A DNA stretch of 64,000 nt from a virus. Lineage: Duplodnaviria > Caudoviricetes. Of the stretch, positions 15,130 to 62,353 are shown piece by piece. A program made the translations under genes and the position numbers. Below the pieces are notes generated by a model. That model was not told the origin of the DNA. It did no database searches and was given only the letters and a program-made list of their open reading frames with translations. Positions within the stretch are counted from its first letter, which is position 1; every line of letters begins with the position of its first letter. The DNA is taken from the IMG/VR virus record IMGVR_UViG_3300023184_002375, positions 1,725 through 65,724 of that record. One strand, given 5' to 3'.

Positions 15130-18100
15130 ATGGCAGTACAAATCCAATTTAGACGGGGAACAGCATTTGAATGGCATTCCGTTAATCCCAAACTGGCCGA
15201 AGCAGAAATGGGGATCGAAACCGACACCAATTTGTTCAAAATTGGAAACGGTATTGACTTCTGGGATGATTTAGACTATGGCGGTATACAAGGTTATACC
15301 GGTTCTGCTAGTACATCTACATTAAGTATTGCAGTTAGTAATGTGCTTTACGTTAGTAAAAGTGGTAACGATGCTAATGACGGACGTAGTTTAGCCAGCA
15401 CTAAACTTACTATTGCATCAGCTGTGGCAGCAGCAGGAACAGGAACTACTATTTTTGTCAAAAGTGGCGATTATACTGAAATAACCCCTATTACAGTACC
15501 TGATTTTGTGTCTATTGTAGGCGATAATCTACGATCTGTAACCGTTAGACCTACTACCTCTACACACGATATATTCTATGTCAATAACGGTGTTTATATT
15601 GCACATATGACATTTAAAGATCACGAGTCTCCGGCCGCAGCAATTTCATTTAATCCTGATGGGAGTGCTGGAGTTATTTCTACCAGCCCATATGTACAAA
15701 ATTGTACAAGTATGACCACAGATGGTACAGGTATGCGTGTAGATGGTAATTTTGCATTGGGCACTAAGAGTATGGTTGTTGATGCGTTTACACAATATAA
15801 TCAAGGTGGTATTGGTATACATATGCTCAACAGTGGATATACACAGCTTGTTTCTGTGTTTACCATTTGTTGTGATAAGGGTATATTATGTGAATCTGGA
15901 GGCTTCTGCTCTATTACCAATAGTAATAGTAGTTTTGGTAATTATGCACTATATGCAGATGGGGTAGGTGCGGTAAAATATACAGGCAACGTTAATGGCG
16001 ATACCAGCGGCAGAACATTTGTTATAGATAATTTAAGCCAAAAGCCTAGTATTGGTGATGCAATAAGTTTCGGTGATGGTAACTACTATACTATTACTGC
16101 TAGTACCACATTTAAACCAGGTAACGTTGATATAACTTATCCTTATCTTCTTGCGGAACTTGCAGGATTTAGAAATGCTAGACAAACTATATTAAATGAT
16201 AAACCTAAATTACAAGTCCAAACAATTAATCATGTTTTAGAAACATTCCCGGGCTTTGATTTTAATCAATTTAAATGTAGTAGAGATGTAGGTATAATTT
16301 TAGAATCTGTATGCTATGATATGGTATTGAATACAAATTATCAAAGTATCTTAGCAGGTACTAGTTATTATAGAGCTGCATCGTCTACGGTAATTACTAC
16401 TCAATTAACAGAAACATTAAGTGCTGTAACTTATTTAAAAGGCAAAGTGTTGGAATTACTAGAAATTGCCACTGACCCTTACACTCGTGTCGCTGATTTA
16501 TTTGATATAATATTAAACATTATGGAAAATGGATTAGGTGTTGCACCTTCATTTACATTTAATCCTCCAACTACAGCTACTATACATACACAAAATGCAG
16601 TACTTCAATTGCAAGCTAATAAAAATTTTATTGCTGAAGAAACCGTAGCTTATGTAAGTGGGTTTACTTATAATACAGCAACTTGTTATAGAGATACAGG
16701 ACTTGTTATTGATAGTATAGCATTTGACTTACTCTATGGTGGAACTAGTCAAAGTGCATTTGCAGGATTACAATATTGGAGCCAAAATAGTTATGTTGGT
16801 GATATAGTTAATCAACTAACCACTACTACTGCTGCTATAGCATATGTTAGAGATCAGGTTAGTGCTATTGCTAATTCTTATGGTGGAACTACTTCAAGGG
16901 ATATAGTAATTGATAATTTTAATACTATTATTGATATTTTAAATACAGGAACAACTGGCGTTACAGATCGAATTGTTCCTAATGGTTTTGCATCCACTAA
17001 TGGTGATATAAATTCTGCCTACATTGCTATATTATCCTTCAAAACTGATATACAAAATAATACCATTGATTGGATTACTACCAATTACCCTGATTTTACC
17101 TATAGTACTTCTACTTGCTATAGAGATGTAGGTTTTATGATTAACAGTGTAGTAATTGATTTGTTACACGGTGGTAATAGACAAAGTATAATGAGCGGAG
17201 TTTACTATTATGGTTATAATACAGCCTCTACCGCAACTGTAATAGCCAACGAAATTCCTCAAACTACTGCTGCATATAATTTTATAAGAGATATATCACA
17301 AAAAATAATTACAAGTACTGTAATAACAGCTACATATCAAACAGTTGTTAGTCAATATATATCTGCTAGTACTGGAACTGTGGCTGAGTCTAGACTAATT
17401 CATACAAAAATATCTACTATAACTAATATTATTAATAATGGCCCTAGTGTTGCACCACCACACGTGCCTATTGGAACAACTCCTAGCAGCGATGCAAATG
17501 TAGAACATGCTTTTGAATTATTATTAAACAATCGAGCATTTATACAAGCAGAAACTGTGGCATTTATTAATACCAGTTATGTCGGAGTAGTTTATAGTAC
17601 AGCTACTTGTAAACGTGATGTTGGATATATAATTGATGCTGTAAGTTATGATTTATTATATGGTGGAAATAGTCAAACTGCTGTAGCCGCCGATTCTTAT
17701 TATGATGGCGCAGTATTTAGAATATCTAATACTGAAAAACTAGCAACCATAGCTGCCTACTATTTTATTAAAACAATAGTCGACGACGTTGTATTAGAAA
17801 ATGTTATAACTCCATTACAATTAGGGGTGTCACAAAATACCAGCAATGATCCAGGATATCAAGAAGATTCAGATCGAGCACAATCATTGATTGATATTGT
17901 TGCCAATGTTGTAGAAAATGCATACTCAAGTACTATTACTCTACAGCAGGCACTAGCAACTGTAGTTGATGATAATACACCTGTTACTTTCCAACAGTAT
18001 AGCTTAATTCAAAGTTCGGCACATAATTTTGAATGGATTGGAGCAGGAACAAATATTAATGCTGCGTTACCTTATTTAGGCGGTGAACCTATTACTGAAA

Positions 18101-18279
18101 ATCAAGCAGTGGCTGTTAATGGTGGTAAAGTTTATTATACTGGTACTGATCAGAAAGGAGATTTCCGAATTGGTAACGATCTGGTTATAAATAACAACAT
18201 AGGAACAATCTCTGGAAGAACATTTACAAAGAGTCTGTTTGCGGTCATGACACCGTATATTTTGGCAATTGGAAGATAA
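15130..18279 (+). CDS. Virion protein: Mtd-N/hyaluronidase-N-like anchor + pectin-lyase-like beta-helix + four helical C-x-R-D repeats
   Basis: N-terminus MAVQIQFRRGTAFEWHSVNPKLAEAEMGIETDTNLFKIGNG matches the major-tropism-determinant N-terminal pattern. LYVSKSGNDANDG...TIASAVAAA...TIFVKSGDYTE is a typical beta-helix lead-in. Four C-x-R-D-[VT]-G repeats follow. Confidence 0.8.
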   Translation: MAVQIQFRRGTAFEWHSVNPKLAEAEMGIETDTNLFKIGNGIDFWDDLDYGGIQGYTGSASTSTLSIAVSNVLYVSKSGNDANDGRSLASTKLTIASAVAAAGTGTTIFVKSGDYTEITPITVPDFVSIVGDNLRSVTVRPTTSTHDIFYVNNGVYIAHMTFKDHESPAAAISFNPDGSAGVISTSPYVQNCTSMTTDGTGMRVDGNFALGTKSMVVDAFTQYNQGGIGIHMLNSGYTQLVSVFTICCDKGILCESGGFCSITNSNSSFGNYALYADGVGAVKYTGNVNGDTSGRTFVIDNLSQKPSIGDAISFGDGNYYTITASTTFKPGNVDITYPYLLAELAGFRNARQTILNDKPKLQVQTINHVLETFPGFDFNQFKCSRDVGIILESVCYDMVLNTNYQSILAGTSYYRAASSTVITTQLTETLSAVTYLKGKVLELLEIATDPYTRVADLFDIILNIMENGLGVAPSFTFNPPTTATIHTQNAVLQLQANKNFIAEETVAYVSGFTYNTATCYRDTGLVIDSIAFDLLYGGTSQSAFAGLQYWSQNSYVGDIVNQLTTTTAAIAYVRDQVSAIANSYGGTTSRDIVIDNFNTIIDILNTGTTGVTDRIVPNGFASTNGDINSAYIAILSFKTDIQNNTIDWITTNYPDFTYSTSTCYRDVGFMINSVVIDLLHGGNRQSIMSGVYYYGYNTASTATVIANEIPQTTAAYNFIRDISQKIITSTVITATYQTVVSQYISASTGTVAESRLIHTKISTITNIINNGPSVAPPHVPIGTTPSSDANVEHAFELLLNNRAFIQAETVAFINTSYVGVVYSTATCKRDVGYIIDAVSYDLLYGGNSQTAVAADSYYDGAVFRISNTEKLATIAAYYFIKTIVDDVVLENVITPLQLGVSQNTSNDPGYQEDSDRAQSLIDIVANVVENAYSSTITLQQALATVVDDNTPVTFQQYSLIQSSAHNFEWIGAGTNINAALPYLGGEPITENQAVAVNGGKVYYTGTDQKGDFRIGNDLVINNNIGTISGRTFTKSLFAVMTPYILAIGR

Positions 18280-18282
18280 AAT

Positions 18283-18624
18283 ATGGCAACCGCAACATTA
18301 CCATTAAATTCGTTTAAAACAAAAGCATTTGAATTAACAAATGCTACTCAAACTGTCTATACTACCCCTGAAGGTGTTACTACCATTGTATTAGGAGCCC
18401 AAGCTACTAATATTGGTGCAAGTCCAGTTACTGTAAGATTTACTTTGGTAAAAAATGCCACTGATTTTGTTATGCTTAAAGATTTTGAAATTCCAGTTAA
18501 TGATGCTTGTGAAGTTACAACGGGTAAGTTAGTAATTGAATCAGGTGCATCAGTTACAGCCAGTGCAGGTGCGAATAATTGTGTTAATTTAGTTTTAAGC
18601 ATATTAGAAACCAGCAATGAGTAA
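18283..18624 (+). CDS. Small beta-sandwich structural protein (113 aa)
   Basis: Clean ORF with VYTTP...TIVL..QATN...KLVIE.G.S..AS pattern; overlaps the next start by 8 nt (ATGAGTAA); resembles 55753..56124. Confidence 0.75.
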   Translation: MATATLPLNSFKTKAFELTNATQTVYTTPEGVTTIVLGAQATNIGASPVTVRFTLVKNATDFVMLKDFEIPVNDACEVTTGKLVIESGASVTASAGANNCVNLVLSILETSNE

Positions 18625-58978: not shown

Positions 58979-61900
58979 ATGAAAATTGCTATTATAGATA
59001 TTATCGGAATACCCTACGATGGTAATACCATAGATAATCAGGGATTAGGTGGCAGCGAAAGTGCTGTAACACTCATGGCCTATGAATTGGCACAAATTGG
59101 GTTTGATGTAACTGTATTCAATAATTGTGGTATTGATCATGCAAAACCTGGAAATTATCAAGGTGTTGAATATCGTACACTTACTGAATTAGCCAAAGAC
59201 CATGTTTTTGATATTGTTATAAGCTCAAGAACTGTAATTCCATTTACTGATCCTAAAGACTACGAAAGGCTTGGTGATAGTAGAGCATACCCATTCCATG
59301 ATATGAATCTTTATGATAGGATACTCGCTAAAGCTACTATGCGTATATTGTGGATGCATGATACATTCTGTCTCGGAGATAATATCATTGAAGAACTTGC
59401 TGTAGCTAATCGTATTACAGATATATTCACACTCAGTGACTTTCACCTAACTTATGTGGCTAACTGCCATCATGGACGTAGACGTAATTTTGAAGTACTA
59501 AAACGTAAGATGTTTATCACACGCAATGGTGCTAGAAATTACAGAAAAGAAATTGATATCAAAGCTAAGGATCCTAACTTATTTGTATATAATGCCAGTG
59601 TAACCAAAGGTATGATCCCACTAGTGAATCATATTTGGCCCAAGATAACAGCAATGATACCTAGTGCTAGATTAAAAGTTATAGGTGGTTATTATAGATT
59701 TAGTGAAAGTTCTGAACCAGATCAACAAGAAAAAGATTGGCGCAGGATGGCGGCTGATCCACGTAATACGGAACTTGGTATAGAATATACAGGTGTTATT
59801 CCTCAACGAGAAATTGCTGATATACTTACATTGGCAAATTTTATGATCTACCCTTCGGCATTTCCTGAAACGTTTGGTATATCATCATTAGAAAGTTTAC
59901 TCTACAATACTCCTATACTTACTTGTAGATTTGGAGCATTGGAAGAAATTGCTCTAGAAGGTGCCTGTTATCATATTGATTATTCTATAGAGCCTAATGG
60001 CTTGTTCCCTGATATTAATACCACTGAACAAATTAATAAGTTTGTGGCAATGACTGTACAAGCATACCACAATAGATATCTACATCAACAAAAACAATAC
60101 TACTGTAACATTGTTAAAGATATTGCAGGATGGGATAGTGTTGCCCTACAGTGGAAACAGTTTATGGCCCAACGTCTGGGCAAATATCTATCTAAAGACA
60201 GCTATCGTCGAGTATCTAAAATTAATCGTAGAGTACATAAAATTTGGAATCGTAGGTTTACTAATACCATTGAATTGGAAAACTATAAATCCGGTAATGA
60301 ACAAAAGATAATAATTATCAGTCCCTTCTATAATTGTGCTGAATACATTTCTCGTTGTATAACTAGTGTGGCTACACAGGACTATGATAACTATGAGCAC
60401 ATTTTAATTGATGATGCTAGTACAGATAACACAGTAGAAGTTATAATAGAAACACTAAGACCGATGCCAGCAGATATTAGAAATAAGTTCACACTTATTT
60501 CAAATACGGAGAATTTAGGCGCAGTTAGAAATCAAATACAAAACATAAGATCAATAGTCAAGGATGATAACGCCATTGTTATGTTAATAGATGGTGATGA
60601 TAGTCTTATTAATGATAATACTATATTCTCATATTATAATTCTATCTATGATGGTACTACGGAATTTACCTATGGTAGTTGTTGGAGCATGATTGATAAC
60701 ATTCCATTAATTAGTCAACCATATCCTGAAGCAATTAAACAAAGTAAATCCTATAGAGATCATCATTTTAATTGGATATTACCTTATACACATTTAAGAA
60801 CATTTAAGAAATCATTATTAAATAATATTGATGATAGTTCATTTAAAGATAGCAACGGTAATTGGTATAAGGCTGGTGGTGATGGAAGTGTATTTTATGC
60901 ATTGATAGAGGAAGCAGATCCCAATCGAGTAAAATGTTTAACTGATGTAGTTTATAATTATAATGATACAAGTCCGTTAAATGATTATAAAGTTAATGCA
61001 GAAGAACAAAATAAAAATGCAAGAGAGATAGTACAAAAAATGATTCAACCTAAAAAAAAAATACTTATAGCAATTCCAACAGCTAAGAATATTGAACCAG
61101 ATACATTTAAAAGTATCTATGATCTTATTGTGCCTGATGGATATGAAACTATGTTTCAATTTTTCTATGGATATAATATAGATCAAGTACGTAATTTAAT
61201 AGCAAGTTGGGTAGTAAATGGATTTGATTATCTATTTTCTGTAGATAGTGATATTGCATTTGCACCAGATACGTTGGCTAAATTATTAGCACACGATAAA
61301 GATGTGGTAAGTGGATTATATATACAACGTAAGCCGGGTCAACATATTTTAGAAATATACGAACATACATCAACTGGTGGTGTAACTAATATGCCTTATG
61401 GAAAATTAAAAGGCAGATCTTTAGTAGAAGTAGCAGGTTGCGGATTTGGATGTACTTTAGTCAAAGCAGAAGTATTGAGAACTATAGGATATCCCCAATT
61501 TAAATATCATAGTGCTATAAGTATCAACGATACAGTATCCGAAGATGTAGATTTCAGTATTAAGGCACGAGATCGTGGATTTAAAATTTGGGCAGATCCT
61601 ACTATATTATGTAGACATATAGGAAGTTTTACATTTAGTGTAGATACAAATATACCAGCAATTGACACACATTCAAATATAGTTGACATTAAACAATTTC
61701 TAAGAGAATTGCGAGATCCATATCCATTTCCACCTGCACATATAGAGTACTTGACTAAATTAAAAGAACAAGGAGAAAATCCAAAGGTTATATATGACAT
61801 TGGTGCATGTGTGTTACATTGGACAGATAGAGTTAAGAACATTTGGCCTGAAGCGGAAGTTATAGCATTTGAAGCAGCAGATGTACACGAATTCTTATAT

Positions 61901-62353
61901 CAAGAAGCTGGTATAAAATACTTTATAGGAGTATTAAGTGATCAAAGTGGTAAAGAAGTAGACTTCTATCAAAATAATGAAGCACCGGGCGGCAATAGCT
62001 ATTACAGAGAAAATCCTGAAATTCAACCAGCAGCAGCAACTTTGTACAGCGACAAGTATGTTAGAAAACTTAAAACTATTGCACTAGATGCAGTAGTAAG
62101 CCTTAATCAATATCCACCACCAGATCTAATTAAAATGGATGTACAGGGCGCAGAAATGGATGTTCTTAAAGGTGCCCAAGAAACTATTAAAACAGCTAAA
62201 CATATTATATTAGAATTGCAGATAGTAGAGTATAACAAAGGTGCTCCATTAAAAGATATTGTAATTGAGTATATGGATTCACTGGGCTACGATTGCTTAG
62301 GATTGTTTAGCAATAACGGTCCAGATGGCGACTATCATTTCGTGCGTAGATAA
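58979..62353 (+). CDS. Fusion enzyme: GT4-like (GT-B) + GT2 + second GT-A-like domain + FkbM-family methyltransferase
   Basis: GLGGSE and PETFGISSLE (ExxxxxxxE) for GT-B; IISPFYN...LIDDASTD for GT2; ILIAIP...DYLFSVDSD (DxD) for GT-A; VIYDIGA...LIKMDVQGAE for FkbM. No signal peptide or TM segment seen. Confidence 0.88.
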   Translation: MKIAIIDIIGIPYDGNTIDNQGLGGSESAVTLMAYELAQIGFDVTVFNNCGIDHAKPGNYQGVEYRTLTELAKDHVFDIVISSRTVIPFTDPKDYERLGDSRAYPFHDMNLYDRILAKATMRILWMHDTFCLGDNIIEELAVANRITDIFTLSDFHLTYVANCHHGRRRNFEVLKRKMFITRNGARNYRKEIDIKAKDPNLFVYNASVTKGMIPLVNHIWPKITAMIPSARLKVIGGYYRFSESSEPDQQEKDWRRMAADPRNTELGIEYTGVIPQREIADILTLANFMIYPSAFPETFGISSLESLLYNTPILTCRFGALEEIALEGACYHIDYSIEPNGLFPDINTTEQINKFVAMTVQAYHNRYLHQQKQYYCNIVKDIAGWDSVALQWKQFMAQRLGKYLSKDSYRRVSKINRRVHKIWNRRFTNTIELENYKSGNEQKIIIISPFYNCAEYISRCITSVATQDYDNYEHILIDDASTDNTVEVIIETLRPMPADIRNKFTLISNTENLGAVRNQIQNIRSIVKDDNAIVMLIDGDDSLINDNTIFSYYNSIYDGTTEFTYGSCWSMIDNIPLISQPYPEAIKQSKSYRDHHFNWILPYTHLRTFKKSLLNNIDDSSFKDSNGNWYKAGGDGSVFYALIEEADPNRVKCLTDVVYNYNDTSPLNDYKVNAEEQNKNAREIVQKMIQPKKKILIAIPTAKNIEPDTFKSIYDLIVPDGYETMFQFFYGYNIDQVRNLIASWVVNGFDYLFSVDSDIAFAPDTLAKLLAHDKDVVSGLYIQRKPGQHILEIYEHTSTGGVTNMPYGKLKGRSLVEVAGCGFGCTLVKAEVLRTIGYPQFKYHSAISINDTVSEDVDFSIKARDRGFKIWADPTILCRHIGSFTFSVDTNIPAIDTHSNIVDIKQFLRELRDPYPFPPAHIEYLTKLKEQGENPKVIYDIGACVLHWTDRVKNIWPEAEVIAFEAADVHEFLYQEAGIKYFIGVLSDQSGKEVDFYQNNEAPGGNSYYRENPEIQPAAATLYSDKYVRKLKTIALDAVVSLNQYPPPDLIKMDVQGAEMDVLKGAQETIKTAKHIILELQIVEYNKGAPLKDIVIEYMDSLGYDCLGLFSNNGPDGDYHFVRR

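Follow-up and report, generated by a model that had tools for sequence, protein, structure and literature searches.

The purpose of the working heme oxygenase and bilin reductase genes (hemO with pcyA or pcyX) of non-cyanobacterial phages is unsettled. Phytochromes or the bilin biosynthesis-associated globins (BBAGs) of heterotrophs were named as mere possibilities, the BBAGs being proposed as possible acceptors for phage-made phycocyanobilin (PMC11480375), and a hemO-reductase cassette was described in large freshwater phages (10.1101/2020.02.13.942896). Among cyanophages, P-HM1 and P-HM2 did not adsorb in the dark and P-SSM2 did (PMC6628666); adsorption of S-PM2 was light-dependent independently of host photosynthesis, and light-sensitive tail fibres might be involved (PMC6628666, citing Jia et al. 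2010). The DNA analysed here, referred to as the window, is a stretch of 64,000 nucleotides from an uncultured virus of the Caudoviricetes (positions 1,725 to 65,724 of IMG/VR record IMGVR_UViG_3300023184_002375), and the element under study is a gene within it for a tail-fibre-type protein of 1049 amino acids (aa) with four tandem repeats resembling phycobiliproteins (PBPs). No paper describing a PBP-like domain in a phage structural protein was found in the literature.

The best overall explanation, given a probability of about one half, was a tail-fibre-type protein with a shaft of four tandem PBP-core modules, each of which would hold a bilin. The acceptor that phage-made bilins have lacked may be such a fibre; the candidate is a phage-encoded family that combines a PBP pocket with the attachment motif and occurs alongside heme oxygenase and PcyA/PcyX in the same genomes.

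Repeats and layout of the fibre protein

The motif Cys-x-Arg-Asp (C-x-R-D) occurred exactly four times in the protein (Cys383, Cys519, Cys663 and Cys827; spacing 136, 144 and 164 aa). Translation and motif count bore out the original prediction, made from the letters of the window, of four helical C-x-R-D repeats with these spacings and with Cys codons at 16276, 16684, 17116 and 17608. The units, numbered R1 to R4, were mutually similar by pairwise BLASTP (R2 against R4, E 1e-18; R1 against R3, E 2e-16), and were therefore considered true repeats rather than chance occurrences of a motif. The four-way alignment contained 12 invariant columns, which included C, R, D, G and an Asp at +14, and all four units were predicted to be all-helical with a common six-helix pattern. 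The repeat unit was not found in the other open reading frames (ORFs) of the window. The protein and its parts were as follows, in positions of the window:

15130..18279, + strand: tail-fibre-type, probable virion protein (P0001), 1049 aa; stop-free ORF; PHROG tail-fibre families, phrog_17885 at E 9e-86
15142..15255, + strand: Mtd_N-type N-terminal anchor domain, aa 5-42; Pfam PF18454, E 2.5e-11, 43.7 bits against a cut-off of 26.3
15322..16149, + strand: N-terminal region rich in beta strands, resembling a fibre or baseplate wedge, aa 65-340; matches to PHROG families for tail fibres and baseplate wedges
16150..16557, + strand: phycobiliprotein-like globin module R1, aa 341-476; Cys383 codon at 16276, second Cys at 395; six helices, predicted local confidence (pLDDT) 80-95
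16558..16989, + strand: phycobiliprotein-like globin module R2, aa 477-620; Cys519 codon at 16684
16990..17481, + strand: phycobiliprotein-like globin module R3, aa 621-784; Cys663 codon at 17116; long G-H loop
17482..17949, + strand: phycobiliprotein-like globin module R4, aa 785-940; Cys827 codon at 17608; module used for modelling
17950..18276, + strand: conserved fibre domain at the C terminus, aa 941-1049; matches the C-terminal part of the tail-fibre family phrog_17885, E 5e-34

The protein is very probably a virion fibre. Its virion role is deduced from the gene, homologues in S-PM2 and P-HM2 being annotated as tail fibre and baseplate wedge. An Mtd_N anchor and a probable virion protein had both been claimed beforehand, and agreed with the Pfam match at residues 5-42 and with the PHROG matches, which gave a tail-fibre type; the anchor domain also had weak matches to phage hyaluronidase N-termini in the Protein Data Bank (PDB). 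The region of aa 65-340 was the most conserved part of the protein among orthologues and formed beta strands in the full-length model (low pLDDT at aa 166-278 as a monomer). The C-terminal fibre domain (aa 941-1049), which modelled poorly as a monomer, and part of the N-terminal region were about 50% identical to cyanomyovirus tail-fibre proteins, e.g., P-SSM2 PSSM2_293. In P-SSM2 (NC_006883.2, 213709-216727), PSSM2_293 is a repeat-less relative, two genes downstream of the heme oxygenase gene PSSM2_291.

Orthologues with matching N and C termini were found in 17 related viral contigs. Orthologues with identical termini varied by whole modules (2, 4 or 6), and their ends were more conserved than their modules. 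In the two-module orthologues (L002, L012, L016, L020 and others, compared with window positions 16558-17600) the missing block ran from about one quarter into R2 to about one fifth into R4, i.e., almost exactly two units in register, which fits unequal recombination between repeats.

Homology to phycobiliproteins and predicted fold

The Pfam PBP model (PF00502) matched the whole protein at E 2e-4 with 21.7 bits, under the cut-off of 22.2, a sequence match that was suggestive only. R1 alone matched marginally (E 0.025, profile positions 74-154). A PF00502 search of the 65.7-kb contig to which the window belongs returned nothing; the domain is too diverged for that filter, and the result was thus uninformative on the fold.

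Profile comparisons were made with an alignment of 122 diverse phage repeats from 80 related viral loci (A2; mean column identity about 22%). Its profile gave 12 hits among all PDB sequences, 10 of which were phycobiliproteins (best E 0.011), with the phage Cys on Cys84, the Arg on Arg86 and the Asp on Asp87, and with alignments extending back through helix B. Alignment by hhalign to 57 real CpcA and CpcB sequences (A3; from cpcA and cpcB genes of cyanobacterial genomes) gave a probability of 91.8% (E 7.5e-7; 92.8% in a local run) and placed the motif Cys on PBP Cys82/84. It covered 92 columns, from helix B to helix G. Between R4 and a single real CpcA, BLASTP gave E 4e-6 across the Cys84 region. 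The PBP-invariant Tyr95 and Gly112 aligned with the commonest residues of the phage family, and the position of the PBP-invariant Arg91 was Asp in 80% of the phage repeats. In PBPs, Arg91 pairs with Asp13 of the X helix. The phycocyanin alpha sequence quoted in the original prediction agreed with a real CpcA from a Thermosynechococcus contig, and the similarity that had been proposed beyond the core motif was recovered, the helix-B 'L..N' segment and the aromatic residue before the Cys falling inside the profile-profile alignment.

The AlphaFold2 model of R4, built with A2, had a pLDDT of 95.6, a predicted TM-score (pTM) of 0.90 and six helices, and contained a globin-like core (helices A, B, E, F', G and H). 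With Foldseek against the PDB, the first 50 or so hits were all PBPs or engineered derivatives (TM 0.6-0.7). With a Foldseek-independent aligner run against 48,161 representative chains, eight PBP chains ranked first: far-red allophycocyanin scored Z 14.6 (root-mean-square deviation, rmsd, 2.2 A over 121 residues), phycoerythrin beta 14.5 and the domain of ApcE, the core-membrane linker, 13.7 (4xxi; 12.2-12.8 to full-length ApcE chains). Photocobilin globin domains followed below the PBPs (Z 11.8), and then haem sensor globins (at most 11). With this aligner, chance alone can take a helical model to about Z 13; here ranking, coverage and sequence evidence concurred. The R4 model spanned PBP residues 30-160 approximately, which corresponds to the globin core from helix A to helix H without the X-Y hairpin. 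The full-length monomer model was of lower confidence (pLDDT 67.8, pTM 0.48); its four globin modules were confident (pLDDT 80-95), aa 1-68, 166-278 and 958-1049 were of low confidence, and the placement of the modules relative to one another was not fixed by the model.

An absence of any true relationship, with an unrelated helical bundle carrying the motif by chance and drawing the prediction to the PBP fold, was judged most improbable. Marginal single-sequence and Pfam scores and a best E of just 0.011 for the profile against the PDB leave some room for it, as does an ESM Atlas feature search with R4 that produced no usable match. It would have to account for a profile-profile alignment extending from helix B to helix G, well beyond the motif, and for a model of such confidence from 122 diverse sequences; the top hits of two different structure aligners were all PBPs (120-140 residues covered, rmsd 2.2-2.5 A), and the same fold was shared by independently predicted phage proteins in BFVD, labelled there just 'structural protein', 'tail protein' or uncharacterised. 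The repeats are almost certainly homologous to PBPs and are predicted to have the PBP fold, and the structural comparison and sequence profiles agreed with the globin-type domains first proposed, not with an unrelated helical bundle.

Conservation of the candidate pigment site

In sequence alignment, the Cys-x-Arg-Asp on predicted helix E was shown to align with PBP Cys84, Arg86 and Asp87. Among 325 unique repeats from the 80 loci, the Cys was kept in 94%, the Arg in 93%, the Asp in 97% and the Asp 14 residues further on in 100%. A profile search over 1.84 billion representative proteins returned 1625 proteins at E <=1e-3 and 742 at E <=1e-30 (the 1625 being clusters at 50% identity), with lengths up to 6382 aa and about 40 repeats. 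Over 1245 near-full repeats drawn from the 150 best proteins, conservation was 94.1% for C43, 94.8% for R45, 98.1% for D46, 99.3% for D57, 98.0% for Y73 and 87% for T89, so that the conservation of Cys, Arg and Asp anticipated for homologues extended to more than 1000 repeats. The median domain score of these repeats was 108 bits, and repeats without the motif would thus still have been detected.

Losses at the site were coupled. Where the Cys was kept (n = 1172), D46 was lost in 0 of 1172 repeats, R45 in 2.5% and Y73 in 0.3%; where it was lost (n = 73), D46 was lost in 33%, R45 in 49% and Y73 in 30%. The control columns N63 and Q119 were not coupled to Cys loss (odds ratio 0.9). The p-values of coupled loss overstate independence, as the repeats are related; the contrast with the control columns stands. 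Cys made up 0.70% of residues in the 150 proteins, and the motif Cys accounted for 53% of all their Cys. His was the commonest residue in no column conserved at >=55% (157-position profile), and there was no haem-type proximal His.

Judged from the sequence, binding of a bilin by the modules could go either way. An apo-globin spacer, with PBP-derived modules now serving just as rigid, length-adjustable beads of the shaft and the conserved Cys, Arg, Asp, Asp57 and Tyr73 forming a ligand-free internal polar network on which folding, or the contact of modules or chains with one another, depends, was considered doubtful, if a serious alternative. Variation of the orthologues by whole modules is what a shaft spacer would show, the expansion to some 40 repeats in other proteins points the same way, and the motif was equally intact in repeats of contigs with the reductase (36 of 41) and of contigs without it (336 of 365). 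The residues kept, however, are exactly those that touch the chromophore in PBPs, in a module that has otherwise drifted to the mean column identity given for the 122 repeats, and the residues of the site decayed jointly after Cys loss and other conserved positions did not. A lone conserved free Cys per module is also unusual for a protein in oxic water, the more so where Cys is otherwise scarce.

A PBP-type pocket put to a non-bilin purpose, such as another ligand, a metal, or a Cys cross-link (disulfide or other bond) between fibre chains, was thought quite improbable. It accommodates the strong conservation and coupling of the site, and also the invariant Asp57 and the Asp at the PBP Arg91 position, both of which are foreign to PBPs. 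The module offers neither a conserved His nor a second conserved Cys that could bind a metal or haem or form a pair inside it, however, and one Cys per chain cannot pair among three identical chains; the Arg-Asp beside the Cys is the bilin signature of PBPs, and relatives carry the bilin pathway.

Identity of the phage and distribution of the repeat

The window's own contig represented about 16% of its genome (CheckV). Contigs with orthologues scaled to approximately 350-380 kb, and two were judged complete (364 and 383 kb). The photosystem gene psbA was found in 0 of 51 related contigs. Related contigs encoded a gp23-type capsid protein, with Sinorhizobium phage Phosso as the nearest cultured relative (72.6%), followed by Vibrio 2.275.O, CBB, GAP32 and PA5oct, i.e., jumbo myoviruses of heterotrophic proteobacteria. 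The absence of psbA and the capsid relationships indicated a jumbo phage of the T4 type rather than a typical cyanophage. Host mimicry of phycobilisomes, one of the functions originally floated, is therefore unlikely for the window phage.

Among 50,697 cultured-phage records, the repeat region matched 139, of which 138 were Synechococcus or Prochlorococcus phages or cyanophages and one was an unannotated marine virus. Homologous modules with the motif were present in S-PM2 p091, a 3792-aa frame of S-PM2, P-HM2 gp7 and a 3682-aa frame of P-HM2. Matches to the repeat profile, some of them partial, numbered 9 in S-PM2, 4 in P-HM2 and 0 in P-SSM2. Sampling of the jumbo clade by capsid gene showed the repeat to be widespread there (four of the five longest contigs; reductase in none of the five; completeness 27-53%). 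In each of the two complete jumbo genomes, four to five separate proteins contained the PBP-like module, frames of 296 and 381 aa among them.

In the complete 383-kb relative (G016), the module lay in these small frames at 101694-102158 (+ strand) and 225981-226415 (- strand). The small frames could be easier to express than the giant proteins.

Bilin supply in related phages

A bilin reductase (Fe_bilin_red, PF05996, above cut-off) was found in 11 of 51 repeat-bearing contigs, in both complete genomes, and in five of seven contigs at least 58% complete. Several reductase-positive contigs (including L003, L004, L008, L012 and L013) carried orthologues of the fibre protein with a first repeat 60-78% identical to that of the window. 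The reductase was closest to PcyA models, far under their cut-off, and was thus termed PcyA/X-like. Heme oxygenase adjoined it in 10 of the 11 contigs (order hsp20-clpS-ho-reductase). The cassette lay 44-83 kb from the fibre gene in nine syntenic contigs, on the side where the window's contig ends before reaching it, and further away in two more (G020 and G023). As a background rate, such a reductase was present in 23 of the 50,697 cultured-phage records (22 cyanophages and Pelagibacter phage Mosig), and in none of the listed jumbo-phage isolates nearest by capsid protein.

Searches for GAF and phytochrome PAS_2 domains in the five longest reductase-bearing relative contigs, both complete genomes included, were negative, which showed that bilin-pathway relatives carry no other recognisable bilin-binding protein within this search. 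Retention of the bilin pathway by jumbo phages without another recognisable acceptor argues against modules that are mere apo-globin spacers.

In relatives such as L201 (1489-3455, - strand) and L205 (438-2713, + strand) the bilin genes stood in a conserved string of hsp20, clpS, (a small ORF), heme oxygenase and the PcyA/X-like reductase; the heme oxygenase and reductase genes of relatives overlapped by a few codons. In the SAR11 phage Mosig (MT647606.1, 39650-43977; L265), one block beside neck genes combined four 2OG-Fe(II) oxygenase genes with those for ferrochelatase, heme oxygenase and the pcyX-like reductase. S-PM2 had repeats and no reductase, and its host makes bilins. In the same phage (NC_006820.1, 163961-170343), a cpeT lyase gene (163961-164470) lay about 2 kb upstream of the first repeat of the 3792-aa frame, on the same strand.

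Proposed mechanism and evidence against it

With bilin-bearing modules, phage enzymes would convert host heme to a bilin during infection. One bilin per module would be taken into the PBP-type pocket and linked to the Cys by a thioether. As no T-type or S-type lyase was encoded, attachment would be autocatalytic or would depend on an unrecognised lyase. The released virion would then bear pigmented fibres. As to what the pigment would do, the favoured guess is that light acts through it on fibre conformation or on adsorption; alternatively, it could give photoprotection or simply stabilise the module.

The presence of repeats in S-PM2 and P-HM2 and their absence from P-SSM2 matched the reported light and dark adsorption, a lead that rests on three phages and is to that extent a caution. 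Light-only adsorption of some cyanomyoviruses lacks a named photoreceptor, and the repeat-bearing proteins give a testable candidate. Control of adsorption by light through a fibre pigment was nevertheless regarded as unlikely. The wider proposal, in which the fibres of these phages and of S-PM2, P-HM1 and P-HM2 would carry covalent bilins and serve as on-particle photoreceptors, light switching the fibre conformation and limiting adsorption to daytime, is tentative, with the odds clearly against it. If true, it would explain both the light-dependent adsorption of cyanophages and the retention of heme oxygenase and bilin reductase in phages of non-photosynthetic bacteria.

Several further observations weigh against bilin-bearing fibres. 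Some concern the protein itself: each single repeat scored at most 15 bits on PF00502 or did not match, the AlphaFold2 model is an apo form, and we know of no report of coloured cyanophage particles. Others concern the partner genes. The window had been said to hold no bilin enzymes, which held for the whole 65.7-kb contig (no Fe_bilin_red or heme oxygenase match in this 16% or so of the genome). Of the genes that the original prediction proposed to look for elsewhere, the heme oxygenase and the pcyA-type reductase were present in close relatives, both complete genomes included. T-type and S-type lyases were not found in relatives (CpeT in 0 of 50, CpeS in 0 of 20), a result that also favours a spacer or a non-bilin use of the pocket.

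Co-occurrence of repeats and reductase was also incomplete in both directions, as a spacer would allow. P-SSM2 (complete genome; bilin reductase and annotated heme oxygenase) and Pelagibacter phage Mosig (complete genome; hemO and a pcyX-like gene) make bilin enzymes and had 0 repeats, and two repeat-bearing contigs of 58-76% completeness, like S-PM2, had no reductase. Among 32 further reductase-bearing viral contigs, one (G071) had repeats; most were fragments of 5-30%, and the power of this search was low, as just two or three contigs extended far enough on the fibre side. The repeat-negative reductase contigs L210 and L234 were weak evidence in the same direction. The 11 reductase-positive contigs were mutually related, and so do not represent independent events.

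Irrespective of pigment, the PBP fold was recruited as a building block of the virus particle, in a large family (1625 clusters, up to about 40 modules per protein) that is unannotated in public records and in BFVD.

Neighbouring genes and composition of the window

The fibre gene belonged to a cluster of giant, fibre-like genes, each of them on the + strand. One further feature lay just downstream of it:

18283..18624, + strand: 113-aa ORF; phrog_1276, a family without assigned function, E 1.7e-12

Its position suggests a possible role as an accessory to the fibre or in fibre assembly. A hypothetical gene of 342 nt, equal to this ORF in size, follows PSSM2_293 in P-SSM2. The repeat region (window 16001-18000) had a G+C content of 0.327; values were 0.40-0.48 upstream, at 10-16 kb, and 0.38 immediately downstream. 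An ORF of 1124 aa in the structural cluster (window 58979-62353, + strand) had glycosyltransferase-like and methyltransferase-like regions (PHROG), and might modify virion proteins or host surface sugars.

Comparison with known systems

The alpha and beta subunits of PBPs (PF00502) were the best structure and profile matches of the phage module. Both share the globin core, helices A through H, as predicted for the phage module, a helix E with Cys-x-Arg-Asp on Cys82/84, Arg86 and Asp87, an aromatic residue at PBP Tyr95 and a Gly at PBP Gly112. Unlike PBPs, the phage module lacked the X-Y hairpin and the Asp13/Arg91 pair, so that no alpha-beta monomer or disc would be possible; it had a shorter B-E loop, a conserved Tyr73 and, at +14, the additional invariant Asp. 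PBPs are free subunits of 160-175 aa that form phycobilisome discs, whereas the phage modules are in tandem within a 1049-aa tail-fibre protein, which fell under the Pfam gathering score and would be on the virus particle and not in an antenna.

ApcE likewise has a PBP-type domain inside a long multi-domain polypeptide. It consists of a single PBP domain with an inserted loop and the bilin Cys at another position, followed by linker REP domains, and attaches its bilin without a lyase, which provides a precedent for lyase-free attachment. The phage proteins differ in holding 2 to 40 tandem PBP-type modules and in keeping the canonical Cys84 position. Haem globins and globin-coupled sensors were more distant, with lower Z than PBPs and with a conserved proximal His that the phage module did not have.

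The BBAGs are also PBP paralogues outside phycobilisomes, in organisms with PcyA-type reductases. Rockwell et al. reportedly described them in 2023 as cellular single-domain proteins encoded beside the reductase. By gene position and description, on which this comparison was based, the phage modules differ from them in lying in virion fibre genes tens of kilobases or more from the ho-reductase pair. In comparison with the phage hemO-pcyX/pcyA cassettes and phage CpeT, relatives of the window phage carried the same kind of two-gene cassette, in the hsp20-clpS-ho-reductase order; those phage bilin genes encode enzymes, whereas the fibre protein is a candidate target and not an enzyme.

The giant proteins of T4-like cyanophages (S-PM2 p091 and P-HM2 gp7) had the same module and motif as the window protein, and N- and C-terminal fibre domains were common to both. 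They are 3300-4450 aa long and come from psbA-carrying cyanophages; the window protein, of 1049 aa, comes from a psbA-less jumbo myovirus.

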